IMG/VR virus record: IMGVR_UViG_3300025277_000060
Span: 1 to 36,649 of that record
Direction: 5' to 3' (one strand)
DNA from: a virus
Taxonomy: Duplodnaviria; Caudoviricetes
Length of the DNA: 36,649 bases
Shown: one piece after another, positions 5,284 to 36,649 of the stretch
How the letters are laid out: every line of letters begins with the position of its first letter
How positions within the stretch are numbered: position 1 is the stretch's first letter
Position numbers and translations under genes: made by a program
Notes under the pieces: model-generated
Databases searched by the model: none
What the model was told of the DNA's origin: nothing
Seen by the model: the letters and a program-made list of their open reading frames with translations, nothing else

Positions 5284-5285
5284 CT

Positions 5286-15597: not shown

Positions 15598-16274
15598 CTA
15601 AAGTTAGCAGAAAGTGTTCTTCTTTCTCCCTTTCCAAAAAATGGAGTAACAGAATGTAATAACCAATGAGGAAATATTATCATCTTCCCTTCTTCCGGAA
15701 CTATATATTCAGATGAAGGATGTCGGAGATCTACCATTTCTTTTCGTGAAGTTACACCCCAAAGTAATTGTGTAAATCCATCCACATCTCCTGATGCATT
15801 ATTGTGGTCTAATTCTAAATAGCCAGCATCATTTTTCATTAATTTAGTTCTTTTTTTTATACAGTCAGGAACTTTTAAGTACAATACAGAAGACATACCA
15901 ATAGGAGTAGTATCTGTTTCCACCCCATGATCATGCAACAAATTATAATCTCCAGAAAAACTATGTACAGTCCAACATTCATAAGCATGGGCTGATAGCT
16001 TTCTTTTAAAACCTTGTGTTAATAATTTTGTAGCACAATTATCAATAACATTTTTAAACTTCTTTCCAAATTCAGTATCCATAGGAAAGTCTAACTGTGC
16101 TGATTTTTTATCTTGCCTTATTTGACCTACAAGTTTAGATGCATAATCTTCATTAGCTGGAACAGTAGTCTTATCAACATACCCATTAATTTCACTAACA
16201 AAATCTTTTGGGAAGTAAATCGTAGCCATAGTTAATATTGGCTTTGCCTCTAGTCTAATTTTTATATCATCCAT
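15576..16274 (-). CDS. 2OG-Fe(II) oxygenase-like protein (TIGR02466-type)
   Basis: W...YNLLHDH, SSVLYLKVP, P.EG.MIIFP.WL.HSV.PF and R.TLSAN motifs. Confidence 0.85.
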   Translation of the reverse strand: MDDIKIRLEAKPILTMATIYFPKDFVSEINGYVDKTTVPANEDYASKLVGQIRQDKKSAQLDFPMDTEFGKKFKNVIDNCATKLLTQGFKRKLSAHAYECWTVHSFSGDYNLLHDHGVETDTTPIGMSSVLYLKVPDCIKKRTKLMKNDAGYLELDHNNASGDVDGFTQLLWGVTSRKEMVDLRHPSSEYIVPEEGKMIIFPHWLLHSVTPFFGKGERRTLSANFSCRGLKE

Positions 16275-17155: not shown

Positions 17156-17359
17156 ATGGAAGATTTAAATAATAAAGTATCTGATAGTTTTTCAAAAGAA
17201 CTTCTTGACTTATGTAATAAGTATATGTTACTAGGAATAGATAGAGCTGAACAATGTACTATTATACTTAATGTATTTACTGGAATATATATTACATTTA
17301 TACATGAAATAGAAACACTAATAAAAGAAAAGGAAAAACCCGATGAAACTTTACACTGA
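17156..17359 (+). CDS. Hypothetical early protein
   Basis: ATG 17156 (MEDLNNK...) just downstream of the promoter; no RBS, possibly leaderless. Confidence 0.6.
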   Translation: MEDLNNKVSDSFSKELLDLCNKYMLLGIDRAEQCTIILNVFTGIYITFIHEIETLIKEKEKPDETLH

Positions 17360-17657
17360 AACATTAGTAACTTCAGCTATTAAAAACATGGTAGGTCATA
17401 AAATATTTAAAGCTATGTTTGTAAAAAGAAATGGTGAAGTTAGAGAAATGAATTGTAGATTAGAAGTTAAGAAACATTTGAAAGGGGGAAAAAATGTAAA
17501 TAATAAAGATAGGTATTTAACAGTTTATGATTTAAAGAGTAAAGGTTATAGAAATATAAACCTTAATACTATTATAGAAATTAGATGTGGTGGAAATATA
17601 ATCAAACGATTTACAGGAAACACTGGTAACATCTATGTTTTAGCAAAGGAAAAGTGA
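17343..17657 (+). CDS. WYL_2 / Sm-like SH3-barrel protein (DUF2693-like)
   Basis: F.K.NGE.R.M.C...YLTVYDL...GYR.INL pattern; AAGGA RBS. Confidence 0.75.
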   Translation: MKLYTETLVTSAIKNMVGHKIFKAMFVKRNGEVREMNCRLEVKKHLKGGKNVNNKDRYLTVYDLKSKGYRNINLNTIIEIRCGGNIIKRFTGNTGNIYVLAKEK

Positions 17658-17658
17658 T

Positions 17659-17910
17659 ATGTTAGTAGATGATTTTTATACATTAGGCTCTGCATTAATG
17701 CGTTCACAATTTGGATTGCCTACTGTATATGTAATGAAAGATAGTGAATACCAAAAACTTATCAACAAAAGAATAGAGAGTAGAATACAAGGTCTTGAAG
17801 AACATAAAAAAAGTCTTACAGCAGGTATGGAAAATGCTGATAGACAGATAGCTAAACTTAAAGAAGAACTTCAAGAAGTACCAAAAGAAGTAACTAAAGA
17901 GAAGTCATAA
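17659..17910 (+). CDS. Hypothetical coiled-coil protein
   Basis: RBS, heptad-like C-terminus. Confidence 0.7.
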   Translation: MLVDDFYTLGSALMRSQFGLPTVYVMKDSEYQKLINKRIESRIQGLEEHKKSLTAGMENADRQIAKLKEELQEVPKEVTKEKS

Positions 17911-18158
17911 TGGAACTCTTATATTATGCCATAATTTCATACTGTTTAAGTACCTGTTCAGTAGCTGAAGATTTTACAAGATATGTATATACACCTGCAG
18001 TTTCTTTAGAAGAGTGTATGCAAGCAACAGAAGAAATGGCAAAGTGGGAGAGAAAACAGCATAATGAGTTAGTGCATAAACCAATTAATACTCTCTGTGT
18101 ACAAACAGGAGTTATGTCAGAAGAACGTTTGTCTCTACATAAAGAATGGCATCCATGA
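17910..18158 (+). CDS. Hypothetical protein with hydrophobic N-terminus and Cys pattern
   Basis: TAATG coupling; CxxxC...C...C. Confidence 0.7.
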   Translation: MELLYYAIISYCLSTCSVAEDFTRYVYTPAVSLEECMQATEEMAKWERKQHNELVHKPINTLCVQTGVMSEERLSLHKEWHP

Positions 18159-18325
18159 CAAATATTATAACATTAGTAAATGAAAATAAGATATTAAAAA
18201 AGAATGTCAAAGATTTACAGGGACAACTACAGATGGCGTATAAGAAAATATATGAGTTGACAGAAAGATTGAATAGGTATAAGGTCAGAGAAAGTACTCA
18301 AAGTGAGGAGAAACACTATGACTGA
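18155..18325 (+). CDS. 56-aa coiled-coil protein (MTNIITLVNENKILKKNVKDLQGQLQMAYKKI...)
   Basis: ATGA overlap with the upstream stop; fills the gap; not in the ORF track. Confidence 0.7.
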   Translation: MTNIITLVNENKILKKNVKDLQGQLQMAYKKIYELTERLNRYKVRESTQSEEKHYD

Positions 18326-18680
18326 AAACACTTTTATTAAATGGATAAAAGATGAAGCTAAAGATTATGAAAGGAGAAAAGCTGTGCCTAAAAAGAAAGA
18401 AGAAAAAAGTCAGATAAGTGATGCTGTACTGAAACTTGTCAATATTACTAAAGAACTAACAAGACATATTGACGAGTGTGGAATACGGTACATTACTTAC
18501 AATGATGTACACAAAGTTGAAGATGCTATAGACATTGTTGTAGAAGAAACAAATTTAAAACTCCAAAAACACGTTCATGAAGCTGGTGAACAAAAAGGAG
18601 AACTGTCAAGAGCATGGTGGTCTGATTTTGTTAGAGCAGATGACCCAAGAGCATTTAAGGAGGAAGAAGATGGAAAATAA
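18318..18680 (+). CDS. Hypothetical protein
   Basis: GAGGAG RBS before ATG 18318. Confidence 0.75.
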   Translation: MTENTFIKWIKDEAKDYERRKAVPKKKEEKSQISDAVLKLVNITKELTRHIDECGIRYITYNDVHKVEDAIDIVVEETNLKLQKHVHEAGEQKGELSRAWWSDFVRADDPRAFKEEEDGK

Positions 18681-18927
18681 GAAATACCACACTAGAAAAG
18701 GAATGACACCTCAAATTATTAACATACTTAAAGACGGAGAGTGGCATACTGTACAGGAAATCTCAAAAGAGATTGGATATTTAGAAACAGGAACGTCAGC
18801 AGGTATCCGTAGTTTAAGAAAAGACGCTTATGGCAACTTAAATATTGTTGGCAGGTGGTTAGGTGGAGTTTACCACTATCGTCTTGAAGAGGGTAAGTGG
18901 GGTGAACAGTTAGAACTTGCTGTATAG
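18670..18927 (+). CDS. Winged-HTH DNA-binding protein
   Basis: IINILKDGEWHTVQEISKEIG..ETG.SA.IR.LRK...YRL pattern; GGAGG RBS before ATG 18670. Confidence 0.75.
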   Translation: MENKKYHTRKGMTPQIINILKDGEWHTVQEISKEIGYLETGTSAGIRSLRKDAYGNLNIVGRWLGGVYHYRLEEGKWGEQLELAV

Positions 18928-18933
18928 AAAAGT

Positions 18934-19040
18934 TTTGTTGGTGCAGGCATGAAAGGACTTTATTGTCAGTACAGGCTAAATGCTTAAAATTATACCTGTC
19001 TCAGTGAATTGACACATGGAGTATAAAATATGCCAACAAA
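18934..19040 (+). ncRNA. Candidate structured ncRNA (multi-stem junction)
   Basis: Closing stem 18934-18943/19031-19040; internal stems 18945-50/18980-85, 18990-95/19021-26 and 18997-19000/19011-14; followed by a terminator. Confidence 0.4.
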
Positions 19041-19044
19041 GGAA

Positions 19045-19081
19045 AGAGAGTGGTCTTTAATTAGACTGCTCTTTTTTTTTT
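19045..19081 (+). terminator. Intrinsic terminator
   Basis: AGAGTGGTCT/AGACTGCTCT stem (2 GU pairs) followed by a ~10-T run. Confidence 0.8.
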
Positions 19082-19082
19082 G

Positions 19083-19111
19083 TTGACAAGGTTTTTAATC
19101 TGTAGTAGTGC
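19083..19111 (+). promoter_or_regulatory. Putative sigma70 promoter
   Basis: TTGACA 19083-19088 right after the terminator; weak -10 (TAGTGC) at 17 nt. Confidence 0.45.
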
Positions 19112-19131
19112 TTGGATAGAAAGGAAAAAAG

Positions 19132-19263
19132 ATGATACGCAATTTTACATTTTTAGATGATCCTGTTAAGAAAAGAACATCAATCGGTCATTCCTGTAGA
19201 AGTAGACCAAAGAATAAACATAAGAGAAGGTCGTGGAAGAAGTATAGAGGACAGGGGAGATGA
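19132..19263 (+). CDS. 43-aa highly basic peptide ending KNKHKRRSWKKYRGQGR
   Basis: AAGGA RBS; KKxTSIG...KKYRGQG motif recognised from marine phage small proteins; not in the ORF track. Confidence 0.8.
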   Translation: MIRNFTFLDDPVKKRTSIGHSCRSRPKNKHKRRSWKKYRGQGR

Positions 19264-19418
19264 AGATGGATAAACTAACAGAACATGAATTATTAAAAAG
19301 ACTTGATAATGAATTTTATGATGTTGATTTTCAAGTTGTAACAAGTGCAACTAAAGGTGTTGTGGCTACTGTTCAATTTTATGAAGATAAAATAGAGGAG
19401 AATGAAGATGACACATAG
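19260..19418 (+). CDS. 52-aa acidic hypothetical protein
   Basis: ATGA overlap, GGGGAG RBS; not in the ORF track. Confidence 0.7.
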   Translation: MKMDKLTEHELLKRLDNEFYDVDFQVVTSATKGVVATVQFYEDKIEENEDDT

Positions 19419-19623
19419 AATAGGAGATAAAGTTACTATCATTTGGAATACAGAAGAACTACCTATGGAATATGCCAATGGTCATTATCCTAATGAGAAA
19501 GAAACAGTAACAGTTCTATCAGAAGATGAGGAATGTTACCATTGTACTAATTCTGTATGGGTATCAAAGAAACATGAAGATGATTATGTATGGGAGAATG
19601 AAGATGTTCCTAGTAACATATAA
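19402..19623 (+). CDS. Hypothetical protein
   Basis: GAGGAG RBS, MKM start. Confidence 0.7.
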   Translation: MKMTHRIGDKVTIIWNTEELPMEYANGHYPNEKETVTVLSEDEECYHCTNSVWVSKKHEDDYVWENEDVPSNI

Positions 19624-19888
19624 AATCCATGACGGAGAGCATGAATACTATGAATACTCTTGGTTCTCTATGGGTACTCAATCTGATTATGATGCAGGAA
19701 TTATTAAAGATAAGATACTGATAGAGGAAGTTTATGGTGGAGAAGTTGAACAAGAAGAAGGAACAAATAAATATTTTTCAAGAGATTGGGATACATTCAT
19801 ACAAGTGTATTCTGTACAGGATATAACAGTAAAGGAACTAAAGATGTTAAGCAAATTTGGTATAGTAAGTTATGATGGAGAAGGTTGA
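19598..19888 (+). CDS. Hypothetical acidic protein
   Basis: ORF-track frame trimmed to GGGAG-MKMFLVTY. Confidence 0.7.
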   Translation: MKMFLVTYKIHDGEHEYYEYSWFSMGTQSDYDAGIIKDKILIEEVYGGEVEQEEGTNKYFSRDWDTFIQVYSVQDITVKELKMLSKFGIVSYDGEG

Positions 19889-20076
19889 TGAATGAATATA
19901 CCTTTACAGTGCCATGCTGTTATTCTTACACTATACAGGCAAAAAGTGAAGAGGAGGCAAGGAAAATTTTAGTGAAAGACGGAGGAATAAATTTAAGTGG
20001 TGAGTTGTGTGGTTGTGAAACAGAAGATTATAAGAATGCAGAGTTAGAAGAGGTGGTGGAAAATGTCAATAATTAA
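19885..20076 (+). CDS. Hypothetical protein (A.S.EEA family)
   Basis: IQAKSEEEA motif, RBS. Confidence 0.7.
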   Translation: MMNEYTFTVPCCYSYTIQAKSEEEARKILVKDGGINLSGELCGCETEDYKNAELEEVVENVNN

Positions 20077-20311
20077 ACCTGCCGAAGAGAATATTGTCAT
20101 TATGGATAATGCAGTTTTCAAAAGTATTGTCAGAGAGATAGCTGAGGAGATGTTTCGTAGGTCAACTATGCAATGGAGTTATAATGACTTGCATGACATA
20201 ATGGGAGATGGGAAGAGATTGCCTAAAGCACAAAAGATATACAGACAGCATTATGATTTTGTCAGAGCTTGTTTGAAAAGGCATTATATATATAAAGAAA
20301 AAAAAGATTGA
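20063..20311 (+). CDS. Hypothetical protein
   Basis: GAGGTGG RBS, overlap with the previous gene. Confidence 0.7.
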   Translation: MSIIKPAEENIVIMDNAVFKSIVREIAEEMFRRSTMQWSYNDLHDIMGDGKRLPKAQKIYRQHYDFVRACLKRHYIYKEKKD

Positions 20312-20337
20312 CAGCAGTTTTAAGTTATGTCTATTCT
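20308..20337 (+). promoter_or_regulatory. Putative sigma70 promoter
   Basis: TTGACA 20308-13, 18 nt, then TATTCT. Confidence 0.5.
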
Positions 20338-20358
20338 GTACAAAGGAAGGAAATTGTC

Positions 20359-20613
20359 ATGATGAAAAAATCAATCACTAAAATAAATTCACAACTGTCT
20401 GTCAATGCATTAAAAAAGGAAATTGTCATGAGTTTAGATAGTCAACAACAAAGTAGTTTAGAGGACTTACAAGAGGAGACTGTACAGGAAGTATTGGATA
20501 TGTCAGTTAAGGATTTTTGTTTAGAGTGTAAAGAGTATATAAGAAAAACAGGTTATCATAAGTTTTCTGTACAGGATATAGTGGATATTATGGTGGGGGA
20601 GAAAAGAAAATGA
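20359..20613 (+). CDS. Hypothetical protein with two equivalent starts (20359 and 20428)
   Basis: Both ATGs lie in an identical AAGGAAATTGTCATGA context. Confidence 0.65.
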   Translation: MMKKSITKINSQLSVNALKKEIVMSLDSQQQSSLEDLQEETVQEVLDMSVKDFCLECKEYIRKTGYHKFSVQDIVDIMVGEKRK

Positions 20614-20831
20614 TAGTAGCAAATAACAATACACTTAAATCATTAGGATTAGATTACTCTGTACAGGAATGGCAAGATAAAAGAATAAATGCCATTAATA
20701 GAATATTGTCAAAAGCAAGGTACAATCATAAAGAGGTTGCAGAAAAGTATATAGACGAGTATACTAGGGTGTGTAATTCAAAAGCAATTGATAAGAGGGA
20801 ATATAAAAAAGAAAATGTTAAAAACAGTTGA
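20610..20831 (+). CDS. Hypothetical protein
   Basis: ATGA overlap; WQDKRINAINR motif. Confidence 0.7.
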   Translation: MIVANNNTLKSLGLDYSVQEWQDKRINAINRILSKARYNHKEVAEKYIDEYTRVCNSKAIDKREYKKENVKNS

Positions 20832-21606
20832 AAAAAGCAGAGCAAAAAAGACTACGGGAAGTGCTGTTACCTATAGAGCAGGAAAGGATAATGTTTTTGG
20901 TAGTTGTCCCAATACTTGTCCACTTAATCCTGTACAGGATAAAAGTACAGATGAGATTGATTGGTATTATTTAAAAGCTGTACTTCATGCAGTACCAAAA
21001 AAGGGAAAGGCATTTACATTTACCCATTTCAAACTTGAAAACGAGCCACTTGATAAATTGTTCTTGTTACATGATATAAAAGTTAATGAAAATACTACTA
21101 CTATCAATCGGTCAACGGATAGTTTAGATGAGGCAGTTGCTGTACATAGTAAAATGTTTCCAACTGCTGTAACTCTACCTTATAAAAATGCAGGCTATCC
21201 ACCAAATGTCAAAAAAAACTTCACTTATAAAAATGTCAGATTTGTTAGGTGTCCAGCAGAATATAACAAAACAATAACTTGTAAAAATTGTCAGCTCTGT
21301 ACACGTAAACTACGAAATTTTGTCATTGTATTCTATGCCCATGGTAATCAGAAGGAATTAGTAGGTAAAAAAGAGAACGGTGGTTGTTATGGTACTTTTG
21401 GAAATGTCAGATATCAATGGGAGCATACGAGAAAAAATGTCAAAAATGTCAGCAAGTACAACTTTAACTCTTTTATTAGTTCAACTATAGAACAAAAACA
21501 ACTGAAGGATTTTGCAAACAGTTTAGATACGGGAACTCTACTCCGACATCATGTCGTGGGGGATTTTGGGAAGATTAAGTACTCTGTACAGAATAAAAAT
21601 ACTTAA
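20815..21606 (+). CDS. Cys-rich putative Fe-S / radical-SAM-related phage protein (Gp88-like)
   Basis: SCPNTCP, FTH, CPAE..CKNCQLC, FYAHG, GGCYG and LRHHVVGD motifs. Confidence 0.6.
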   Translation: MLKTVEKSRAKKTTGSAVTYRAGKDNVFGSCPNTCPLNPVQDKSTDEIDWYYLKAVLHAVPKKGKAFTFTHFKLENEPLDKLFLLHDIKVNENTTTINRSTDSLDEAVAVHSKMFPTAVTLPYKNAGYPPNVKKNFTYKNVRFVRCPAEYNKTITCKNCQLCTRKLRNFVIVFYAHGNQKELVGKKENGGCYGTFGNVRYQWEHTRKNVKNVSKYNFNSFISSTIEQKQLKDFANSLDTGTLLRHHVVGDFGKIKYSVQNKNT

Positions 21607-21684
21607 AATTAATATTTGCTTATACTTTATTATTGTGTAACGATACTATTTTAACTCTAACTATATATAGGAAGGAAATTCAAA

Positions 21685-22734
21685 ATGTTAGATGCAGAAA
21701 ACGTAATGGGAACAGGAACACACATCCTACCCGAAACTCATAAGCACAATGATTTAAAAGATTTAAGTCTATTTGACTTTGGTATACAGGAAGAGGATTT
21801 ATACTATAAGTTTAACGGTGATTACTTAAAAGCAGATAAAAGAAAAGCAGTAGTCCGTTCCGATACGGGAGATTTTATCGGCAATCACAGTAAACGGTAT
21901 AAAACTATACCACATATTGACTTGTACAAAAAACACACCGAAAAATTACTTGATAGCAATCTTGGTGGTGGTGCTTTGGAAGTCATTGATCAAACTTGGG
22001 ATAATGGTGCTAAGGCAAGGAGAACTATTCATTTCCTTGACCATAAAACTGAAGTTAAGAATAATGATAATATTTGTTTACGTTCCGATATCTTTAACTC
22101 TATAGACGGGTCTTGGGCGTTTCAAACTTTTACTGGTGCATTCCGTAGCTTGTGTTTAAATACCCTAGTTTTTGGTGGGCAAAAGTTTTACCATGAAAGA
22201 AGAAAACATACTTCGGGATTAAATGTTAATTCAGCTTTGTCTAAAATAAGTAATACTTTAGATATATACACCAATCAATCAGATAAGTTTAAGAAGTGGA
22301 GTAATGCAAAAGTAACTGATGCACAAGTTATTCAGTTGTTGGCAAATACTGTTGCAAAAAAGGAAAGTAAAACAGTTGCCACTTTATCTGACTTAAATGA
22401 TATTGAAGTAAGAGATGATGATTTATATAAAAAAGATGTGTACAATAAAGACTTGGTTAATACTAACTTATGTGATTATTTGTACTATAGATATCAGCAG
22501 GAACAAGGCTCACTTGGTCAAACTCTTTGGGCTTTGTATAATGCTGTTACTCATTGGAGTACTCACACTGATGAAACTTTTGAACGTGAAAACAAAAAAG
22601 GGAAAGTCATTGAGATATCAATGGGAAGAAAAGGCAGTCAAAAAGCTAATGTACAGAAGGACAGAGAAATTGCAGTTCGCAATATGTTAGACAGTCGTCA
22701 TTTTGTTGCTTTGGAAGGCTTGGCAGTGGCATGA
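21685..22734 (+). CDS. DUF932 (phage/plasmid TIGR03299-like) protein
   Basis: AVVRSDTG..IG..S.RYK, NS.DGS, R.LCLN, KHT and TLWALYNAVT.W.TH motifs. Confidence 0.85.
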   Translation: MLDAENVMGTGTHILPETHKHNDLKDLSLFDFGIQEEDLYYKFNGDYLKADKRKAVVRSDTGDFIGNHSKRYKTIPHIDLYKKHTEKLLDSNLGGGALEVIDQTWDNGAKARRTIHFLDHKTEVKNNDNICLRSDIFNSIDGSWAFQTFTGAFRSLCLNTLVFGGQKFYHERRKHTSGLNVNSALSKISNTLDIYTNQSDKFKKWSNAKVTDAQVIQLLANTVAKKESKTVATLSDLNDIEVRDDDLYKKDVYNKDLVNTNLCDYLYYRYQQEQGSLGQTLWALYNAVTHWSTHTDETFERENKKGKVIEISMGRKGSQKANVQKDREIAVRNMLDSRHFVALEGLAVA

Positions 22735-22767
22735 TAAATATAACTTATAACACACAAGGCAATAATC

Positions 22768-22842
22768 ATGGAGATAATAAACGCATTATTTAAGATAGCT
22801 TGGATAATAATCATAATAGTTATATTAATGGTTTTACTATAA
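22768..22842 (+). CDS. 24-aa membrane peptide (MEIINALFKIAWIIIIIVILMVLL)
   Basis: Hydrophobic mini-ORF, weak AAGG RBS. Confidence 0.4.
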   Translation: MEIINALFKIAWIIIIIVILMVLL

Positions 22843-22903
22843 TCTAACGAAAGGAGGCTCTCTGAAATTAAATATTGATAAATCAGACAATTATATGTAC
22901 ATT

Positions 22904-22939
22904 AAAATGGTAGGTATTAATTTATCTACCATTTTTTTT
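22904..22939 (+). terminator. Hairpin with T-run (possibly bidirectional terminator)
   Basis: AAAATGGTAG/CTACCATTTT stem then Ts. Confidence 0.6.
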
Positions 22940-22958
22940 AATAACAGGAGATGTTAAA

Positions 22959-23204
22959 ATGACAAATGAAGTTAAAACTGCAAAAACAATAACACTTTAT
23001 CAAGATGATTTAGTCAATGCTGTTCGTACTCAGAATATAAACGGGTTCGTTACTGATTGCACAGAAGAATTTCTTGATAAATTCTCATCAAAAGATAAGG
23101 GTTTATTAGTTATGGGTGTTGTCATGGGTCAAAATAATATGCTTAAATTTCTAAAGAGTGTATTATATGACGGAAGTATAAAAAATGAAAGGTTAATAAA
23201 ATGA
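22959..23204 (+). CDS. Hypothetical protein
   Basis: AGGAG RBS. Confidence 0.75.
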   Translation: MTNEVKTAKTITLYQDDLVNAVRTQNINGFVTDCTEEFLDKFSSKDKGLLVMGVVMGQNNMLKFLKSVLYDGSIKNERLIK

Positions 23205-23383
23205 CAGCACAAGTTATGATAAAAGTACTTTGGGGCGTTTCATTCTTTTTAATTGCTCATGGGTTTATAGGTTTAACTCTTTTATATTCAAGTTCATATT
23301 TTCATTTATTCTTAAACTTGTTTACATTAGGATCGGGTTGTGCCATTCTATTAATACTGACTTTAACAACTAATGAAAGGTAA
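23201..23383 (+). CDS. Two-TM small membrane protein
   Basis: Two hydrophobic stretches, GAAAGG RBS. Confidence 0.7.
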   Translation: MTAQVMIKVLWGVSFFLIAHGFIGLTLLYSSSYFHLFLNLFTLGSGCAILLILTLTTNER

Positions 23384-23388
23384 ACATT

Positions 23389-23664
23389 ATGACTGATTTA
23401 ATATCCCAAAAAGATAAATATAAAGTAGAAGTTAGATATAATGATATTCAAAATAGCTTTAACATTATATCTATTGAAATAGAGGCTATCAATCAAGAGG
23501 TAGCAGAAAAGAAGGCGTTAAACCTGTTACAATCTACGGAATGGGTTCATGAGATACCACAGTCTAAGATGCTCAATAGTAATACAGAATATAGAGCAAA
23601 AGAAAATATAGCCGTTGAGCAGTCTTACGCCTTACTTCCTAAAATTAAAGTAAAGGCTGGTTAA
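23389..23664 (+). CDS. Hypothetical protein
   Basis: GAAAGG RBS; EA.NQE.A motif. Confidence 0.7.
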   Translation: MTDLISQKDKYKVEVRYNDIQNSFNIISIEIEAINQEVAEKKALNLLQSTEWVHEIPQSKMLNSNTEYRAKENIAVEQSYALLPKIKVKAG

Positions 23665-23665
23665 T

Positions 23666-23944
23666 ATGAAAGTAGAAAACATGACAAGCTCAAAAGGTAA
23701 CATAGTGCCAAATCAATTCATTATAAGGGATAAGTTAAACAATAAACTATCTTTTCAATCTTATGGCTCGGTTATCTGCGAAATAATAAACGATGACATA
23801 ACGCTTGATATCGTCTACTGGGATTACTCCCGTACAACTTCACGTTATCTTGGTGCATTCCTTAACTTACCATTAAAGGATATCAAAAAACGTGTATCTT
23901 CGGGGCAGTATCAGTTGAAGGATTTAAACCAAGTTAACCGTTAA
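23666..23944 (+). CDS. Conserved phage early hypothetical protein
   Basis: MKV.NMTS..G..VPNQF..FQSY..WDYSRTT pattern recognised from phage early genes. Confidence 0.75.
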   Translation: MKVENMTSSKGNIVPNQFIIRDKLNNKLSFQSYGSVICEIINDDITLDIVYWDYSRTTSRYLGAFLNLPLKDIKKRVSSGQYQLKDLNQVNR

Positions 23945-24443: not shown

Positions 24444-24472
24444 AGTATACACCTAATATCAGACTTGTCAAG
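24444..24472 (-). promoter_or_regulatory. Leftward sigma70-like promoter (left arm of an inverted repeat)
   Basis: Minus strand TTGACA-N16-TATACT. Confidence 0.6.
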
Positions 24473-24508
24473 TAAAAAATGAAAAAAGTGAAAAAAATAA
24501 CTTTATCC

Positions 24509-24536
24509 TTGACAAACTCTATATTAGGTGTATACT
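24509..24536 (+). promoter_or_regulatory. Rightward sigma70-like promoter for the pqqA/late cluster
   Basis: TTGACA 24509-14, N16, TATACT 24531-36; A-tract UP element. Confidence 0.75.
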
Positions 24537-24789: not shown

Positions 24790-25101
24790 ATGGGAGATAA
24801 TATAATAGATTATAGAGCAGGTATATCCAATAAAATGGTAGGAGCAATGCTGGATAGTAATATTAATCCCACTACTGGTAAACCATTTGCAAATGAAGAA
24901 GCAAAACAAACGTGGATGCAGAACTATGATAAACCTGTTGAAAAACAAAGTAAAGGATTTTTTAAGAGATTAAAGGATGCTTTATTTGCACACGGTGGCC
25001 CAGTTAAAAAAAAGCGTGGGAGCTACATGGGTGGTGGAAAGGTTCATAGGAAAAAGTATGCCAAGGGTGGTGGCGTGAGGAAAGCAACCAGATACAAATA
25101 A
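24790..25101 (+). CDS. Small basic late protein with C-terminal GG-V tags
   Basis: AHGGPV, YMGGGKV, YAKGGGVRKATRYK. Confidence 0.8.
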   Translation: MGDNIIDYRAGISNKMVGAMLDSNINPTTGKPFANEEAKQTWMQNYDKPVEKQSKGFFKRLKDALFAHGGPVKKKRGSYMGGGKVHRKKYAKGGGVRKATRYK

Positions 25102-25115
25102 AAGGAAAAGAAACA

Positions 25116-25595
25116 ATGGGAACAACAAGGAAGAAGAGGAACGGGCGTTATAGATCAGGTGGTTATGGCATCCGTGTACCAAAGGATGAAAAAGCACTAT
25201 GGAGAGTAACAGAAGGTTCAACGGTTGCTAGAGAAAAAAATAGAGAACTAATGCGTGCAGAAAAAAAGGCATTAGAAGATAAAGTAGCTACAATGAAATC
25301 TTGGGATATAGAATTACAAACCGATGCTGAGGTTTGGCTTAGAAAAATAAAAAATGCAAAAACTAGAGAACAATTTGAAAAATTAGCACTTGCTTTTGAT
25401 AAAAAGTTTGAAGCTGCAAGAGAAGTAAAAAAACAAATGGGCCGACCGGGGGGGAAGAAGAAAGTTAGTGCATATGGAAGGAAATTAAGAGGATCTCATT
25501 CAAAGATTAGAAAAACATATAGAAAGGCACAAGATCAAGACATTAAAGAATATGCTAAAGGTGGTGGAGTGAGGAAAGCGAAGAGGTATGGCTAA
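25116..25595 (+). CDS. Basic late protein with C-terminal YAKGGGVRKAKRYG
   Basis: RBS AAGGA; shared tag. Confidence 0.8.
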   Translation: MGTTRKKRNGRYRSGGYGIRVPKDEKALWRVTEGSTVAREKNRELMRAEKKALEDKVATMKSWDIELQTDAEVWLRKIKNAKTREQFEKLALAFDKKFEAAREVKKQMGRPGGKKKVSAYGRKLRGSHSKIRKTYRKAQDQDIKEYAKGGGVRKAKRYG

Positions 25596-25890
25596 AATAC
25601 CTGTATCTCCGTGGGAAGCACTTGCATCATTAATTGTATTACCTGTTCGTGAATTTTTAAGTTTACATAAACAGGCTAGAGAAGCACAATTAAATATGCT
25701 AGATAAAAACAAACGAAAAAAAGCTAAGAAAGCAATAGCTGAAATAAATAAAGAGTTAGGATCTCAATTTAAAGAACAAAAAAGAAAAAGTGAAATGGAA
25801 AAAGGAGCACCGAAAGCCCACGGTGGCAAGGTCCACACGAAAACCTACGCCAAAGGTGGTGGCGTAAGGAAAGCAGCCAGATATAGCTAA
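25588..25890 (+). CDS. Basic late protein with C-terminal YAKGGGVRKAARYS
   Basis: Overlap coupling; shared tag. Confidence 0.8.
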   Translation: MAKIPVSPWEALASLIVLPVREFLSLHKQAREAQLNMLDKNKRKKAKKAIAEINKELGSQFKEQKRKSEMEKGAPKAHGGKVHTKTYAKGGGVRKAARYS

Positions 25891-29867: not shown

Positions 29868-30428
29868 GAAGTATAGTAATCCACCTAGATCACCAAAGAC
29901 TTATATTATAGGTAATATATCAGGTATTAAAAAAGGAGTATCTAAGTTAGATTTAGATGGTAATATGTATATACCTTTAAGTCCTACTAATGATATTGGA
30001 GCATGGTTAGGAGGATCTGAAAGAAGAAGTCAAAGTGATCGGAATACTTTTTATTCTACTATTAATCAAGAAGTAAAATTTAGAGCTAGAAATGCAGGTT
30101 TTAAATTTAAAAATATTAAATTTAATCCCATAAAGGAAAGTGGAAAGAACAACATAAATTTGGACCTGAGGAAAGAGGAGGAGTTTTTAAATCAGATATA
30201 GGAAGATCACTTGAATTTAATGTATCTGATATAAAAGTAAATAAGAGTGGAACATTAACTGCAAATATTAATGTAGGTTTTAAAAGAGGGCATGTACCAG
30301 TTGGACAGGATGGTATATTTACCCCCGATCCAATGTTTAAGAATATTCATGATCAATATAGACAAGTTGGGCTCGGTCCAGAACATGAAACTGTAGGAAC
30401 AATTGGATTTAAATATACATGGCCATAA
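29860..30428 (+). pseudogene. Frameshift-interrupted gene, possibly a beta-barrel-like protein
   Basis: Frame ends at TAG 30201; the -1 frame is open 30126-30428 with typical codon usage and ends VGTIGFKYTWP. Confidence 0.55.
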
Positions 30429-32044
30429 CAACTAAAAACATAGCAAAATATGCACGTAAAGCTGTATCTACAAAGCTATCTAATGCAAAAGCCAAAGCAA
30501 AAAAAGAATCAAAACGTGCTAGAAATGCACGGTATAGGGCGAATAAACTACAAGAAAGTATAGGAAAAATAGATGCAGCCCTAAAAGGAGCTGGAAAAGA
30601 GCCAGTAACAGAAGAAGAACTACTTGCATTACCAGAAAAAGTAAGAAACCATGTTGCAGAGAATGAAGTAGTCTTTAAACCTAACGATGGACCACAATCT
30701 AATTTCTTAGAAAGCCCTGAAAGAGATGTTTTGTATGGTGGAGCAGCTGGAGGAGGCAAATCTTATGCACTTTTAGCTGATGTTTTAAGAGAAGTAGGCA
30801 ATCCCAATCATAGGGGACTACTTTTAAGACGTACTTTACCGGAATTAACAGAACTTATAGACAAAAGCAGACAACTCTATACACAAGCAATGCCCGGAGC
30901 AGTGTTTAAACAGGCAAAATCAACGTGGGAGTTCCCTTCTGGGGCAAAAATATGGTTTTCTTATGTTGATGATGATAGAGATGTAACAAGATACCAAGGA
31001 CAAGCATTTAATTGGATAGGAATAGACGAAATAACACAATATCCTACTCCATATGTATGGAATTACCTAAGATCTAGATTAAGAAGCACCGATCCAAAAC
31101 TTGGTTTATATATGAGATGTACAGCAAACCCCGGTGGTGTAGGAGGTTGGTGGGTAAAAAAGATGTATGTTGATCCTGCACCCCTAAATAAAGCATTTTG
31201 GGCAAAAGAATTTGATAGTGAGAAGACAATAAGGTATCCAATTGGTCATGTAAAAGGAGGACAACCTTTATTTTTAAGGAAGTTTATACCGGCTAGGCTA
31301 ACAGATAATCCTTACCTTGCATTAGATGGTCAGTATGAAGCAATGCTGCTTTCATTACCTGAAGTAGAAAGAAAACGACTTTTAGAAGGAGATTGGGATG
31401 TTGCAGAAGGTGCAGCGTTTACAGAATTTAGTAGATCATTACATGTTACAGAAACATTTGAACCCCCTGATAATTGGGCTAGGATACGTGCCGGAGACTA
31501 TGGTTATAGCAGTCCCTCTTGTGTTCTTTGGGGTGCTATAGATTGGGATAGTAATATCTGGATTTATAGAGAACTGTATATAAAGAATAGAACTGGTGAA
31601 AGCTTAGGCGATCTAATACTGGAAATGGAAAGAAATGATCCACAAATGCAAATTTCTGTATTGGATACAAGCTGTTGGAATAAAGTAGGATTAGGACCTA
31701 GTATAGCAGAAACAATGAATAGAAAAGGTTGTAGATGGATACCAGCTGATAGAAATAGATTAGCAGGTAAAATAGAAATTCACAGAAGGTTAGCTTGTGA
31801 TAGTAATGGACAACCAAGAGTACGAATTATGGATATATGTACAAATTTAATTAGAACGCTACCTGTGTTACCTCTTTCAAAGCATAATCCAGAGGATGTA
31901 GATACAAGAGCTGACGATCACGCATATGATGCATTGAGATACATGATGATGGTGAGATCATTGCATAATGCAAGTACACCGTATTATTCTAATAGACAAA
32001 TGCAAAGACATGTTCCTGCATTTAGTGAGGAGTTTGGATACTGA
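30419..32044 (+). CDS. terL: Terminase large subunit
   Basis: Walker A YGGAAGGGKS, Walker B IGIDE, TANPGG, nuclease GDYG and DHAYDALRY. Confidence 0.95.
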   Translation: MAITTKNIAKYARKAVSTKLSNAKAKAKKESKRARNARYRANKLQESIGKIDAALKGAGKEPVTEEELLALPEKVRNHVAENEVVFKPNDGPQSNFLESPERDVLYGGAAGGGKSYALLADVLREVGNPNHRGLLLRRTLPELTELIDKSRQLYTQAMPGAVFKQAKSTWEFPSGAKIWFSYVDDDRDVTRYQGQAFNWIGIDEITQYPTPYVWNYLRSRLRSTDPKLGLYMRCTANPGGVGGWWVKKMYVDPAPLNKAFWAKEFDSEKTIRYPIGHVKGGQPLFLRKFIPARLTDNPYLALDGQYEAMLLSLPEVERKRLLEGDWDVAEGAAFTEFSRSLHVTETFEPPDNWARIRAGDYGYSSPSCVLWGAIDWDSNIWIYRELYIKNRTGESLGDLILEMERNDPQMQISVLDTSCWNKVGLGPSIAETMNRKGCRWIPADRNRLAGKIEIHRRLACDSNGQPRVRIMDICTNLIRTLPVLPLSKHNPEDVDTRADDHAYDALRYMMMVRSLHNASTPYYSNRQMQRHVPAFSEEFGY

Positions 32045-34473
32045 TGGCTGAAGAAGAATTTGAAAAAACCATAATTGGTGAAGGTATAACACCACGTATA
32101 GAAGGATTAACTACTGATGAAGTAGATGAATTACTAGCATACAGAACAGTATATAATGCTCTATTTACTGATAAAAAAATTCCTTCAGTATTAGAATTAC
32201 AAAAAAAAGCAAAAGAAGATACTCTTACAATTAGAGATGCTATAGCTAGTAGATTTTATGTACAGGGAATAATCCACGATGATATAAAATCTTTTGATAA
32301 TTTTCCTAAAGAAGACATTGCTAAAATTAAAGAAATTTATGCTGTTTTTCCAGATGCTTCTAAAGGTAAAGGTAAAGCATTAAGAACTGTAACGGGGCAT
32401 GCAGATGTTATTAATAAATTTAATAACTTTTTAAAGAAACACAGAAGCTTTGACAATTTACGATTTGATACTTTAATGTCTGATGTTGAAGGAAGTATAC
32501 TTGAATTAAAACAATTAAATAAAACTTTACCAAAAAAAGATAAAATACCAAATATTACTTGGTTAGAAAGTGGTTTTATAAAACCATTTAGAAAAGTAGA
32601 TGGAATAAAAGAAAAATTACTTTCTGGTGATATTTTTCAAGAAACAGAAGGTGCAGGTTCACGTATATTTACAGGAGATATACCCGGTAAAGAAGTTATA
32701 GGTATAATACTTAGAGGAATAAGCAGAATAGAAGATCCAGAATTAAAAAATGCAGCAATTTTAGGACTATTTGGTCAAAGGGCAGAAGCTCTTATGAATA
32801 TGAAAAAAGATCCTATATCAGCATCAAAATTTAAAGGAAAAATTAGACCTTGGTATGATATAAATACTGGAATTATACATAATCCTACAGATATGCCTAG
32901 TATAATAGAAATTGGTGGAAGAAAACGATTACCTCCATCATCTCAGGTAGGTCCATTATTGCGACAAGTATTAGCTCAACAACATTTTATAAGTAAGGGC
33001 AAAGAGGAAATGTTTCCAAATTTAAGAGCTACCAATCTTACAAATATTATAAATAATGTTGTCCATAATAGTGGAGGAATATCAAACTATCCACCAGAAC
33101 TTGTAAAAACACTCGGAAGAAAACTTTCTGGTTTTACTGATTTTCGTAGATTATTTGCATCAATTATGATTAATGAAGTTGCTGATCAAACAACTGATCC
33201 TACAAAAAAGAAAGAATTATATAAACTAGCAAATAAAATGCTAGGACATGGAACAACAAAAAAAATGACTTTAGATGAAATAGATGATCTTCAATATAAA
33301 GTATTAACAGACCATTACGCTATATTAAAAGATAGTAAAACTAAAATTGCTGATAATAAAATTCCTATATTAATGGAAACATTTATGGCAGATGCTATGA
33401 ATGCTGTAGATGATAGAGGCCAATTAAAATCTAATAGATTAGCAGCTATATTAAATATAGATGTACCAGAAAATTTTGGTCATATTTATACTAATACAAT
33501 AGAGGGTGAGATAATACAAGAAACTCCAAATGTAATAGAACGTAATGAAACAGTACAACTTAAAAGTGATACTAAAAAACTTATAGAAACAACTAATACT
33601 AAAAATATTCAAAAACAAATTTTAGGTAATATAAATGAAACTATAGAAGTAACTCAAGGAATAGAAGAAGGTGCAGTAAAATTAGAAGAAAAGGGCTGGG
33701 TTGTAGATAGAGCAACTGGAAAAATGATTCCTCCAGAAAAAGAAATTACATTAACTGATAAACAACAAAGTCTTTATGATAAATATATAAATCCCACTCC
33801 TAAAGAGATAGAGGAACAAGATATTCAAGAGCAATTAGCTAAAACTGGAACAAGAGAAGAACAAACTATAGCACGACTTGCTGGTAAATTAGGTGTTTCT
33901 ATAGAACAGGCAACAGACATAGTTAAAAATAATAAAACTAAATATTTAACTAAAGATCAAATAAAGAAGGTATCACCATCATTGAGAAAAACATATGGTT
34001 TAAAAGATTATAAAAATGCTGCTTCACAAGAAGATCTTAATAAAATGGCTAAAGGTTTAGGTATAAAATTTAAAAAGAATGTAGACCCTAATAAACTTGA
34101 TGAAAAAATGAGAAAAAAATTAATAGGAAAACTTGGAGGTATTGGAAAAGTTTTATTTTTATGGAGTATATTTACCGGATTTAAACGTGCAAAATTTATA
34201 AAAGAAGAAGTTCCTGTAGAAATGTTTGAACCTAGATTAACAGAGGAAGGCAAAATGCCTTTTGCTGATCAAATGTTTGACGTTTTTGGAGAAGGTGCTA
34301 CTAGTAAGAAAAAATGGAGAGTAGCATATGAAAAATATGCTGGGTTTATTCCATGGTCTCAGCATCTTCCTCCGGATGTTGCATTTGGAACAGGAATGGA
34401 AGAAGAACATTATGAAGAAGTATTAGAAGAAGGCTTCGCAAAAGAAGTAGAAGGAGGTCCATTTGGATCTTAA
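32044..34473 (+). CDS. 809-aa protein with a central tyrosine-recombinase-like catalytic domain
   Basis: GQR246AEAL, GGRK294, TDFR368RLFAS, MLGH402 and DHY425 in canonical order. Confidence 0.65.
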   Translation: MAEEEFEKTIIGEGITPRIEGLTTDEVDELLAYRTVYNALFTDKKIPSVLELQKKAKEDTLTIRDAIASRFYVQGIIHDDIKSFDNFPKEDIAKIKEIYAVFPDASKGKGKALRTVTGHADVINKFNNFLKKHRSFDNLRFDTLMSDVEGSILELKQLNKTLPKKDKIPNITWLESGFIKPFRKVDGIKEKLLSGDIFQETEGAGSRIFTGDIPGKEVIGIILRGISRIEDPELKNAAILGLFGQRAEALMNMKKDPISASKFKGKIRPWYDINTGIIHNPTDMPSIIEIGGRKRLPPSSQVGPLLRQVLAQQHFISKGKEEMFPNLRATNLTNIINNVVHNSGGISNYPPELVKTLGRKLSGFTDFRRLFASIMINEVADQTTDPTKKKELYKLANKMLGHGTTKKMTLDEIDDLQYKVLTDHYAILKDSKTKIADNKIPILMETFMADAMNAVDDRGQLKSNRLAAILNIDVPENFGHIYTNTIEGEIIQETPNVIERNETVQLKSDTKKLIETTNTKNIQKQILGNINETIEVTQGIEEGAVKLEEKGWVVDRATGKMIPPEKEITLTDKQQSLYDKYINPTPKEIEEQDIQEQLAKTGTREEQTIARLAGKLGVSIEQATDIVKNNKTKYLTKDQIKKVSPSLRKTYGLKDYKNAASQEDLNKMAKGLGIKFKKNVDPNKLDEKMRKKLIGKLGGIGKVLFLWSIFTGFKRAKFIKEEVPVEMFEPRLTEEGKMPFADQMFDVFGEGATSKKKWRVAYEKYAGFIPWSQHLPPDVAFGTGMEEEHYEEVLEEGFAKEVEGGPFGS

Positions 34474-34502: not shown

Positions 34503-34739
34503 ATGCCAAAAGGAGTAGAAGGAGCATACCGTTCCGATTACGTTACACGTAGTGTTAAACAAGGTGAATTTAATGAAGCTAATGAAGCTGCATTACACCG
34601 TTATCCTTTAGAGAAAGATGTAATGGGTGCAAACTCTGGTGCATTCCAGCAAACTCAAGATTCACCATCATCTAAAACTAATCATAGAGGTGCTGCTAGT
34701 AAAATAGAAGGTAAAGTAACTCAAGGTGAACACGGATAA
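34503..34739 (+). CDS. Small hypothetical protein before the portal
   Basis: GGGAGG RBS. Confidence 0.75.
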   Translation: MPKGVEGAYRSDYVTRSVKQGEFNEANEAALHRYPLEKDVMGANSGAFQQTQDSPSSKTNHRGAASKIEGKVTQGEHG

Positions 34740-34763: not shown

Positions 34764-36649
34764 ATGTCTGATCCTGTTGACATACAAGAAGAGCTCTCTG
34801 AGGGATCTGGTCTTTTAGGTCTTATACAAGCTCGTATGCAAACTGCAGAAAATGGTAGACAAGCACATGAAAAACGATGGTTAAAAGCGTATAAAAATTT
34901 TCGTGGTATTTATGATTCTACTACCCAATATACAACTACTGAAAAGTCTAAAGTATTTTTAAAAATAACTAAGACTAAAGTACTTGCTGCGTATGGTCAA
35001 ATTGTAGATATTTTATTTGCTAATAAAAAATTTCCACTAACTATAGAACCTACACCGGTACCTGAAGGAATTGCAGAATTTGCTCATCTTAAAACACCTG
35101 CTGATCAATTATCTGATCCCTATGGTTTTGAAGGTGATGGAAGGCAATTACCACCCGGAGCTATGGAAGCAACACCACCAAACTTAGATTTTTTAGGATC
35201 TATGGCTAATAAGTTTGGTCCTGATGCACCACTTGCTGAAGGTCCAGCTAAAATAGGTGAACCTCAAATATCTCCAGCAAAAAATGCTGCATTACGTATG
35301 GAAAAAGTTATCCATGATCAACTTACAGATAGCAATGCTGTAAATGTACTACGACATGCTATTTTTGAATCAACTCTTCTTGGAACAGGAATTGTAAAAG
35401 GTCCATTTAGTTCTGGTAAAACTATTCACAAATGGGAAAATGCCGAAGAAGAAAGGGTTTATACACCAGAACAAAAATTAGTTCCTCGTATTGAGGCAGT
35501 TAGTGCTTGGAATATATATCCTGATCCTACTGCTACTAATATACAAGATTGTGAATATGTAATTCAACGTCATAAAATGAATAGATCACAAATACGTAAT
35601 CTTATGGAAATGCCTATGTTTAATCCTGATGCAATACGGGAAGTTATTGTTGGGGGAGGAAACTATACGGAAAAGTACTTTGAAAACACTATTCATGATG
35701 ATGAAACTGAACCATATGATAACCATGAACGATATGAAGTATTAGAATATTGGGGTGTATTAGATACAACTACTGCTAAACAAATGGGTCTTAAAGATAC
35801 AGCTGAATTAGATGATTTAGTTGATGTACAAGTTAATATATGGATTTCTGGAGGTCAGATATTGCGAGCTTGTGCAAATCCGTTTACACCAGAAAGAATA
35901 CCCTACTGTATGTTTCCTTATGAAATAAATCCCTACCAAATATGGGGTGTAGGTGTACCAGAAAACATGGAAGATGCACAATTACTTATGAATGGTCATG
36001 TAAGAATGGCTATAGATAATTTAGCACTTGCTGGTAATCTTGTATTTGATGTAGATGAAACCTCATTGGTACCCGGTCAAAATTATGAAATATTTCCGGG
36101 TAAAGTATTTAGAAGGCAATCAGGAGTTACGGGTACTGCAGTAAATGGTATTAAATTTCCTAGTACTGCCGGTGAAAATATACAAATGTATGATAAAGCA
36201 AGGCAACTTGCTGATGAAGAAACAGGTATACCAAGTATTATGCATGGACAAACTGGTGTAACTGGTACAGGAAGAACAGCTGCAGGATTATCTATGTTAC
36301 TTGGATCATCCGGTTTAGCTATAAAAACTGTTATAAAAAATATAGATGATTATCTACTTAAACCAATGGGAGAAGCTTTCTTTCAATGGAATATGCAATT
36401 TAATGAAGATAATCCTGATATAATAGGAGATCTTGATATTAAACCAAAAGGTGCAGCTTCTGTAATGCAAAAAGAAGTACGTTCACAAAGATTAACTATG
36501 TTATTACAAACAGTGGCAAATCCAATGCTTGCACCATTTATTAAGATACCAAACTTATTAAAAGAACTAGCTATATCACAGGATATTGATCCTGATAGTT
36601 TAGTAAATGACGTAAATGAAGCACAGATTTACGCTGAAATTCTCAAAGG
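34764..36649 (+). CDS. Portal protein (3'-truncated)
   Basis: ATG 34764 after AAGGA; E.RW..AY.NFRG.Y, LGTGIVK, WGVGV.E.M.D.Q, R.AIDN and DEETG.P...GQ...RTA.G.SML motifs; not in the ORF track. Confidence 0.9.
   Translation, partial: MSDPVDIQEELSEGSGLLGLIQARMQTAENGRQAHEKRWLKAYKNFRGIYDSTTQYTTTEKSKVFLKITKTKVLAAYGQIVDILFANKKFPLTIEPTPVPEGIAEFAHLKTPADQLSDPYGFEGDGRQLPPGAMEATPPNLDFLGSMANKFGPDAPLAEGPAKIGEPQISPAKNAALRMEKVIHDQLTDSNAVNVLRHAIFESTLLGTGIVKGPFSSGKTIHKWENAEEERVYTPEQKLVPRIEAVSAWNIYPDPTATNIQDCEYVIQRHKMNRSQIRNLMEMPMFNPDAIREVIVGGGNYTEKYFENTIHDDETEPYDNHERYEVLEYWGVLDTTTAKQMGLKDTAELDDLVDVQVNIWISGGQILRACANPFTPERIPYCMFPYEINPYQIWGVGVPENMEDAQLLMNGHVRMAIDNLALAGNLVFDVDETSLVPGQNYEIFPGKVFRRQSGVTGTAVNGIKFPSTAGENIQMYDKARQLADEETGIPSIMHGQTGVTGTGRTAAGLSMLLGSSGLAIKTVIKNIDDYLLKPMGEAFFQWNMQFNEDNPDIIGDLDIKPKGAASVMQKEVRSQRLTMLLQTVANPMLAPFIKIPNLLKELAISQDIDPDSLVNDVNEAQIYAEILK

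Follow-up and report, generated by a model that had tools for sequence, protein, structure and literature searches.

The stretch of DNA analysed in this work (hereafter, the window; 36,649 bases) is a linear virus record of the IMG/VR collection, IMGVR_UViG_3300025277_000060, and is about 45% complete. Our subject is the gene for an 809-residue protein, P0001, that lies between the gene for the large terminase subunit (terL) and the portal gene; we refer to this place as the slot and to its occupant as the slot gene. An earlier reading, made from the letters and a list of open reading frames (ORFs) alone and called here the sequence-only reading, had described the protein as a cryptic tyrosine recombinase. 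In the following, we describe the locus, the evidence for the recombinase fold and the constant exchange of slot genes among related phages, and then weigh the tentative proposal that the product is injected with the phage DNA and acts on DNA other than the phage's own. The features of the locus, with protein lengths in amino acids (aa), are as follows:

30419..32044, + strand: terL, encoding TerL of 541 aa (Pfam Terminase_3/6N, PHROG 979)
32044..34473, + strand: slot gene, encoding P0001, a cysteine-free predicted tyrosine recombinase of 809 aa with a C-terminal tail
32221..32631, + strand: predicted core-binding-like helical domain, residues ~60-196 (39-175 of the model), from structural matches that run across both domains
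32653..33393, + strand: predicted tyrosine-recombinase catalytic domain, residues ~204-450, from conservation and a VIA match to XerA 4a8e
32779 (R246), 32923 (K294), 33136 (T365), 33145 (R368), 33247 (H402), 33316 (Y425): codon positions of residues discussed below
33511..34470, + strand: variable helical tail rich in Ala, Glu and Gln, residues ~490-809, no family match
34503..34739, + strand: 78-aa ORF between the slot gene and the portal gene, kept also where the slot is empty
34764..36649, + strand: portal gene, running off the window (Pfam SU10_portal, PHROG 332/1216)

The stop codon of terL and the ATG of the slot gene overlap as TGATG (32042-32046), the coupling overlap that the sequence-only reading had reported; the 78-aa ORF, which it had not mentioned, is conserved. 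The tail of P0001 contains a Gly-rich hydrophobic stretch at residues 697-713, ends in GPFGS, and is predicted to be the part of the protein that serves loading and delivery. The guanine-cytosine content of the slot gene (32044-34473) is 29.4%, as against 37.4% for terL and 34.7% for the portal gene, a difference in line with either recent exchange or a Lys/Ile-rich composition.

Throughout, papers are cited by PMC identifier, and what is attributed to them refers to portions of their text. The window TerL is 49-59% identical to the TerL proteins of the CRP roseophages, HTVC033P, HTVC103P/115P and HMO-2011, the best cultured matches being CRP-2, CRP-207, HTVC033P and HMO-2011. Its DNA polymerase has a match to PF00684 at residues 308-349 that stays under the cut-off (E 6e-4), and both CXXCXGXG motifs are visible; such a partial DnaJ insert with two CXXCXGXG motifs is given as a hallmark of HMO-2011-type phages (PMC9038755). 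The insert and the related TerL together place the window, by sequence, with the HMO-2011-type marine podophages.

Each of the five motifs named by the sequence-only reading occurs once in P0001, at the positions and in the R-K-R-H-Y order claimed: ILGLFGQR (ending at 246), GGRK (294), TDFR (368), KMLGH (402) and DHY (425). For the analysis of conservation, residues 1-459 were compared by phmmer with 1.84 billion representative sequences, which gave 38 matches. Three were set aside, namely a repeat protein of 5,820 aa and fragments of 80 aa and 196 aa, and the remaining 35 matches were aligned with P0001, P0003 and P0004. In this alignment of 38 sequences, where mean column identity is 20%, the only invariant columns are G244, R246, K294, R368, H402 and Y425. 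A larger set that includes proteins derived from the loci described below contains 121 sequences, or 74 after dropping those at least 90% identical, and in all 74 each of these six residues is kept, so that the conservation proposed as a check on the five catalytic residues holds throughout. Position 365, where the sequence-only reading noted Thr instead of the His of the HxxR motif, is Thr in 71 of the 74, Ser in two and Val in one, and is never His. The extended loop between H402 and Y425 was also borne out: its spacing is 13-23 in the 74 homologs, compared with 9 in the HMO-2011 and CRP-3 integrases. Long loops of this kind have been linked to donation of the tyrosine in trans, and the spacing suggests the same for the slot enzyme; Flp is described as cleaving in trans.

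The ratio of nonsynonymous to synonymous substitution rates (dN/dS) is 0.04-0.33 for the core in 31 of the 32 pairs with an estimable dS, and 0.11-0.74 for the tail in the same analysis, in which some pairs are near-duplicates; these ratios show the slot gene to be under purifying selection. With its catalytic residues conserved in this way, the protein is very probably an active enzyme.

Family searches return little. P0001 has no Pfam or PHROG match; neither it nor 37 homologs reach the cut-off of PF00589, which is passed by two of six other slot proteins tested (L157 and L167). Sequence searches of the PDB with P0001, as a single sequence and as a profile, gave nothing, tblastn of P0001, P0018 and P0040 against 50,697 phage records gave only one chance match (E 0.2), and PADLOC matched none of eight slot proteins.

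Structural comparison is more informative. AlphaFold2 models the whole protein with a mean predicted local distance difference test score (pLDDT) of 73, and residues 22-485 with a pLDDT of 84 and a predicted template modelling score of 0.83. When compared with 48,161 chains by VIA-align, the model has 28 matches at Z >= 5, all of them tyrosine recombinases, type IB topoisomerases (TopIB) or protelomerases. The best is XerA (4a8e; Z 11.6, root mean square deviation 3.1, 165 residues aligned), with IntI at 10.8, lambda Int at 10.7, XerH at 10.4, SroF at 9.6, Cre at 9.4 and MrpR at 8.4; TopIB chains score 6.6-9.2 (9.2 for a bacterial TopIB), TelA 6.4, TelK 5.2 and ResT 4.4. Foldseek also ranks XerA first, only at E 0.008-0.015, never reaching E 0.001, and a search of ESM features links P0001 to integrase clusters with a score of 0.96. 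In the match to the Tn1549 integrase (6emy), the offset at the end of the aligned range (383 in the chain, 408 in the model) would put Y425 on the nucleophile Y379, if the end is ungapped. IntI (2a3v), lambda Int (residues 75-356; 1p7d), XerH (5jjv) and Cre (1kbu) align over 233-250 residues and across both domains. Because these four matches span it, the N-terminal part is a core-binding domain and no extension: what had been called an N-terminal extension of about 230 aa includes residues ~60-196, which align with the core-binding domains of the four enzymes. The structural matches and the invariant catalytic set agree, and the modelled protein almost certainly has the tyrosine-recombinase fold, with core-binding and catalytic domains.

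The missing His had been taken as a sign of kinship with protelomerases and TopIB. This does not hold. The HMO-2011 integrase reads MDLRR at this place and that of CRP-3 reads RDLRR, so both lack the His, with an H-to-Y spacing of 9; since ordinary integrases of the group lack it too, its loss is no pointer to either class and leaves integrase activity possible, and protelomerases score lowest among the superfamily matches found by VIA-align. The His-less xDLRR motif hints instead at descent from the integrase of this phage group. Direct comparison by profile gave no significant match to the HMO-2011 integrase, a single sequence (E 0.39 and 0.086).

We next consider the slot itself. In 85 viral loci seeded with the P0001 family, two of which are identical to the window gene, terL lies directly upstream in 80 and the portal gene downstream in 69; 65 loci have the two together, and the remaining 20 run into a contig end. 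Of 23 metagenome loci, which come in part from these same contigs, five are cut and the other 18 have terL and portal on either side. The terL-gene-portal order, suggested earlier as something to check, is thus conserved across the family. No such gene is present at this place in the cultured phages HMO-2011, HTVC103P, HTVC033P, CRP-2, CRP-13, phiM6 or RHph_N3_19, and the slot-family profile (A2) finds nothing in HMO-2011, HTVC103P or HTVC033P; these searches and the tblastn comparison with phage records turned up no cultured carrier. The post-portal proteins of these last three phages were tested as slot homologs and are not homologous; an 849-aa ORF between terL and portal in RHph_N3_19 resembles a flavin adenine dinucleotide-dependent oxidoreductase and is not a recombinase.

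A second set was seeded with TerL rather than with the gene itself, using the best 80 of 599 confirmed TerL matches. A slot ORF longer than 300 aa is present in 68 of these loci (57 of them complete), four have an empty slot and eight end too early, so that the slot is empty in 4 of the 72 loci that show it. The slot proteins form six single-linkage groups, and 29 of 57 non-redundant ones match PHROG integrase profiles at E <= 0.001. All three large groups keep R-K-R-Y; two whole groups (0 and 2, with L157, L095 and relatives) have Arg at the H/W position. By profile, the window family matches the other two large families at E 5.6e-6 and 1.4e-6.

Whole enzyme cores are exchanged among nearly identical phages. 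Among 132 pairs of loci with TerL at least 95% identical (redundant loci included), 97 have cores less than 25% identical, and the neighbours of the window at 89% identity are spread over four slot groups. On the TerL tree, the 61 rows of the slot clade lie on one side of a branch with a Shimodaira-Hasegawa-like approximate likelihood ratio (SH-aLRT) support of 99, a pattern favoured by selection of the loci through TerL similarity; the empty-slot and L129 rows form one sub-clade (SH-aLRT 100). Placing the group labels on this tree takes 27 changes, where the minimum would be 6 and shuffled labels take 31.9 on average. The cassettes start between -1 and +6 nucleotides from the terL stop and end a few dozen nucleotides before the next gene, and because these bounds sit tight against the neighbouring genes, there is no space for a site that would move with the enzyme. 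Among 41 pairs that share tails, 28 have cores less than 20% identical; tails track phage lineage more than the core does. Taken together, the sequences show the slot to be a clade trait that is hypervariable and dispensable, and the slot gene itself appears to be ancestral to the clade.

Several other observations concern this place. L129 (1528-2568) has in the slot a 346-aa protein that lacks a recombinase core and ends in YAMGG; it also occurs at the start of the slot of L126, matches a PHROG 'virion structural protein' profile weakly (E 7e-4), and belongs to the empty-slot sub-clade. After the portal gene, loci L010-L088 carry a second variable gene of 500-1,090 aa that is nearly free of Cys (6 in 27,219 aa). 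In L181, a contig of a metagenome-assembled genome, TerL is 863 aa long and the capsid gene is broken up, with an ORF of 234 aa between its parts; this arrangement suggests an intein and an intron or inserted nuclease.

The amino acid composition of the slot proteins bears on their route. No Cys occurs in 57 slot proteins (35,296 aa; 22,753 aa in their first 400 residues), and the 49,855 aa of 74 family members are equally free of it; the two sets have three proteins in common. For comparison, Cys makes up 0.99% of TerL, 0.53% of portal proteins, 1.76% of replication enzymes and 1.23% of early integrases, and 0.02% of post-portal proteins; none occurs in the 4,774 aa of those large proteins of the window and the complete carrier genome G002 that are called ejection-type from their size and position. 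Cys suppression is conserved in N4-like ejection proteins and is attributed to passage through the periplasm (PMC11445570). Because the absence of Cys matches this published signature, it points to virion delivery: the purging of Cys from an enzyme fold across groups less than 20% identical seems best explained by an ejection-type route. The suggestion of the sequence-only reading that the enzyme is possibly packaged in the virion thereby gains compositional support. The C termini add a possible signal, in that 36 of the 50 complete slot proteins have [GSND]F among their final 12 residues, compared with a background of 0.10 per 12-mer, for a motif chosen post hoc. A search of the relatives' regions and of G002 with the tail matched no other protein, and in the ESM Atlas the best tail score, 0.81, is a lead only. 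On balance, it is probable that the slot protein is loaded in the virion and ejected.

Small basic Cys-free late ORFs that end in YAxGG or YGG (repeat family D1) lie at 24790-25890 and 5062-6074 of the window, and motifs of this type are also seen in post-portal proteins of relatives and in the L129 slot protein. The motif is possibly a head-loading or protease signal.

From these observations we propose, with a probability of roughly 0.4, that the slot protein is a head-loaded, injected and swappable DNA-cutting effector aimed at non-self DNA. The slot gene would be made late, together with terL, and its product would be packaged into the head through the lineage-linked C-terminal tail. The protein would then pass unfolded through the phage tail and the periplasm, as for N4-like ejection proteins, and after entry Y425 would form a 3'-phosphotyrosine link at a specific DNA site, on the host chromosome or on a resident or co-infecting mobile element, that would be cleaved, excised or rearranged. 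Frequency-dependent conflict would keep many specificities in circulation. The phage's own genome is the less favoured target, since the site would need to travel along in every exchange and the cassette leaves no space for it; given the fold, activity and delivery, we lean towards non-self DNA. In a stronger form of the proposal, to be taken as a possibility only, the polymorphic injected recombinase is a weapon, each allele of which would break or excise its own site before phage gene expression. Such sites might lie, just as tentatively, on the chromosome of the host or in a resident defence island, prophage or satellite.

A number of points weigh against this proposal. The stretch from H402 to Y425 has a pLDDT below 50, and the geometry of the active site is not resolved in the model. 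Cys is absent also from the scaffold (0 in 9,372 aa), the 78-aa ORF and several small late ORFs, and its absence may mark head-internal proteins only, not ejection specifically. A hydrophobic stretch of the kind that might interact with membranes (KD17 >= 1.3) is present in 28 of 50 tails, a weak signal against a shuffled mean of 18.9 (maximum 30), and values of this order are also seen in capsid and portal proteins. No similarity of the tail to known ejection proteins was found, and crossovers within the 3' end of the gene could on their own produce the sharing of tails. No target site for the slot enzyme was found among the candidates examined. Finally, the shared xDLRR motif and the lack of an early integrase in the clade fit a relocated integrase equally well.

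This last explanation, a lysogeny integrase that has moved to the slot and is possibly carried in the virion for immediate integration, its swapping changing the attachment site in the host, is unlikely, although it survives best among the alternatives. It would account for the His-less motif common to the HMO-2011 and CRP-3 integrases, the latter of which belongs to a phage that integrates at tRNA-Met (PMC6918029). Among three complete carriers, PF00589 finds nothing in G002 and nothing besides the slot gene in G011 and G012. Integrase swapping among related temperate phages is, moreover, well known. Against this, the gene has no space next to it for attP, the slot genes contain no tRNA T-arm pattern, 16 loci gave no Rfam match at E <= 1, and the profile comparison with the HMO-2011 integrase described above was not significant. 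In none of the 85 viral and 23 metagenome loci is the slot gene flanked by host genes, and a TerL scan of 185,579 genomes gave three loci, none of which shows a slot gene (one ends within terL). These absences are weak evidence, since prophages from oligotrophic hosts are scarce in the collections.

The sequence-only reading had favoured a housekeeping role, in which the enzyme would serve the phage's own DNA by circularising it after injection, resolving concatemers or processing ends, in the manner of Cre or a protelomerase. The packaging-operon position, the translational coupling, the Cre/Xer-like architecture of core-binding and catalytic domains and the ancestry of the gene in the clade are all as such a role would have them. 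We nevertheless regard it as quite unlikely: a site in the phage genome would need to change in step with the cores, whose exchange is close to random along the TerL tree, and one sub-clade and the cultured relatives examined do without the gene.

The search for a target on the phage genome bears on the same question. The repeats and inverted repeat at 24.2-24.5 kb had been named as candidate targets. The inverted repeat exists (24444-24478/24502-24536), and the span 24444-24536 contains the two best sigma-70 matches in the 19.8-kb region scanned, TTGACA-N16-TATACT on each strand. The leftward TTGAC promoter is found here in 30 of 30 sequences and the rightward one in 25 of 30 (two pairs being from the same record), including the empty-slot L135; outside the close kin of the window, the two promoters are not inverted repeats of each other. 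As a back-to-back promoter pair that is present also in a phage with an empty slot, the span was rejected as a target. The candidates at 22904-22935, which is terminator-like, and the D1 repeats at 25.0-25.9 kb, which are coding and lie within three small ORFs, were likewise set aside. A search for long palindromes or loxP/dif-like pairs (arms >= 12, spacer <= 10) in the window and in the complete G002 gave only terminator-like or AT-rich hits, and no palindromic tel site was found in either the 45% complete window or G002. No strand-changing joint was present among the 15 joints listed, out of 46, in contigs of 4 of 22 runs; contigs cannot show ends. Inversion of the early block by the slot enzyme was also considered and rejected: the block has the same orientation in all nine clade sequences that span primase and DUF932, and its boundaries share no repeats.

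Two features of this region are recorded here separately. Window positions 17343-23944 hold an early block (WYL_2, DUF7227, DUF932) that is inverted relative to primase when compared with HMO-2011. The leftward 24.4-kb promoter points towards about 400 bases of non-coding DNA and the early block's end, with no Rfam match; this place may mark a genome end or encode a non-coding RNA.

A third alternative is a selfish, homing-like cassette that would nick the terL-portal region of co-infecting relatives with a different allele and be copied by repair. Free-standing homing nucleases beside terminase genes are known, and the replacement here is clean from the terL stop. Between terL and portal, the outgroup locus L175 has an HNH-like ORF at 7514-8173 (Pfam HNH, E 0.0055, under the cut-off), and L179 a similar-looking 180-aa ORF at 5539-6081 that has no Pfam match. 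Homing leaves unexplained the ban on Cys, the tail of 200-400 aa under purifying selection and the conserved C-terminal end, and the 3' ends of terL do not follow the slot allele. We judge it to be as doubtful as a housekeeping role, if not slightly more so.

Less probable still is an injected TopIB-like relaxase that would remove supercoils at entry or during early transcription and be diversified only to escape sensing by the host. A bacterial TopIB reaches Z 9.2, within 2.4 of the best match, the His position is not conserved, and jumbo phages carry TopIB of this fold (PMC7824862). TopIB has Lys at the recombinase His position (PMC2747268), compared with Thr, Ser or Val here, the N-terminal domain aligns with recombinase core-binding domains and not with TopIB, and a sequence-blind enzyme gives little reason for families less than 20% identical. 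Finally, a non-catalytic DNA-binding or structural protein like SPbeta MrpR, for which the matches to MrpR (Z 8.4) and SroF (Z 9.6) might speak, is most improbable, as the catalytic residues are precisely the invariant ones.

Inside the replication module of the window, we also observed, on the - strand, an IscA-like gene of Fe-S biosynthesis (PF01521; 14021-14362) and a gene for a 2-oxoglutarate-Fe(II) oxygenase (15576-16274).

Phage recombinases are known as enzymes made in the cell from early or lysogeny genes. In the literature searched, which did not extend to preprint supplements and subscription papers, we found no description of the slot or of a recombinase used in the way proposed here. 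For HMO-2011-type phages, one integrase group is listed, specific to subgroups I and III (PMC9038755), and the slot is not described in those parts of the text and supplementary files of that paper that were covered. If the injected-effector proposal is true, the slot would amount to a naturally occurring library of recombinases, dozens in number and new in specificity, deliverable unfolded through a phage tail, and would represent a novel kind of conflict, between phage and host or between phages, in a marine group that is abundant. If the enzyme is an integrase instead, the description of subgroups IV-X as having no identifiable lysogeny genes (PMC9038755) needs revision. Either way, the slot supplies many putative Cys-free recombinases.

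By the features tested, the slot protein belongs to the tyrosine recombinase superfamily and is not a canonical PF00589 integrase, a protelomerase, a TopIB or a MuF toxin. With XerA/XerH, IntI, Cre and lambda Int (4a8e, 5hxy, 5jjv, 2a3v, 1kbu, 1p7d) it shares the fold and the R-K-R-H-Y order at Z 9.4-11.6. It differs from them in being only 12-14% identical, in lacking the HxxR His, in the H-to-Y loop of 13-23 residues, and in having a tail of 200-400 aa, no Cys, a position in the head operon and no adjacent site. The protelomerases TelK, TelA and ResT and TopIB share the catalytic fold and, like the slot protein, have no His at HxxR; they have lower Z scores, no palindromic target was found in the window or G002, and the slot protein has Thr rather than the Lys of TopIB. 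The integrases of HMO-2011 (gp9) and CRP-3 (gp2) come from the same phage group and have the His-less xDLRR motif (PMC9038755, PMC6918029), whereas they lie upstream of primase, are 292-357 aa long, have an H-to-Y spacing of 9 and contain 2-6 Cys.

Two further systems resemble the slot in route or in organisation. The N4-like ejection proteins (vRNAP gp50/gp71, gp72 and gp73; PMC11445570) are likewise enzyme-bearing, Cys-free and encoded in a late operon. They have no sequence or fold relation to the slot protein and are conserved, whereas the slot is hypervariable and dispensable and its ejection is predicted from composition. MuF-fused polymorphic toxins and polyvalent proteins place a variable enzyme among terminase, portal and capsid genes and are predicted to be packaged (PMC3482391, PMC5512222); the words 'recombinase' and 'integrase' are absent from the main text of PMC5512222. 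The slot proteins show no MuF domain by Pfam or PHROG, their constant part is C-terminal, and no immunity gene accompanies them. A swapped enzymatic domain within the head operon, which is a feature of the MuF toxins, is present in the slot, and by analogy the slot may work like the MuF toxins and polyvalent proteins, with a recombinase as the payload.

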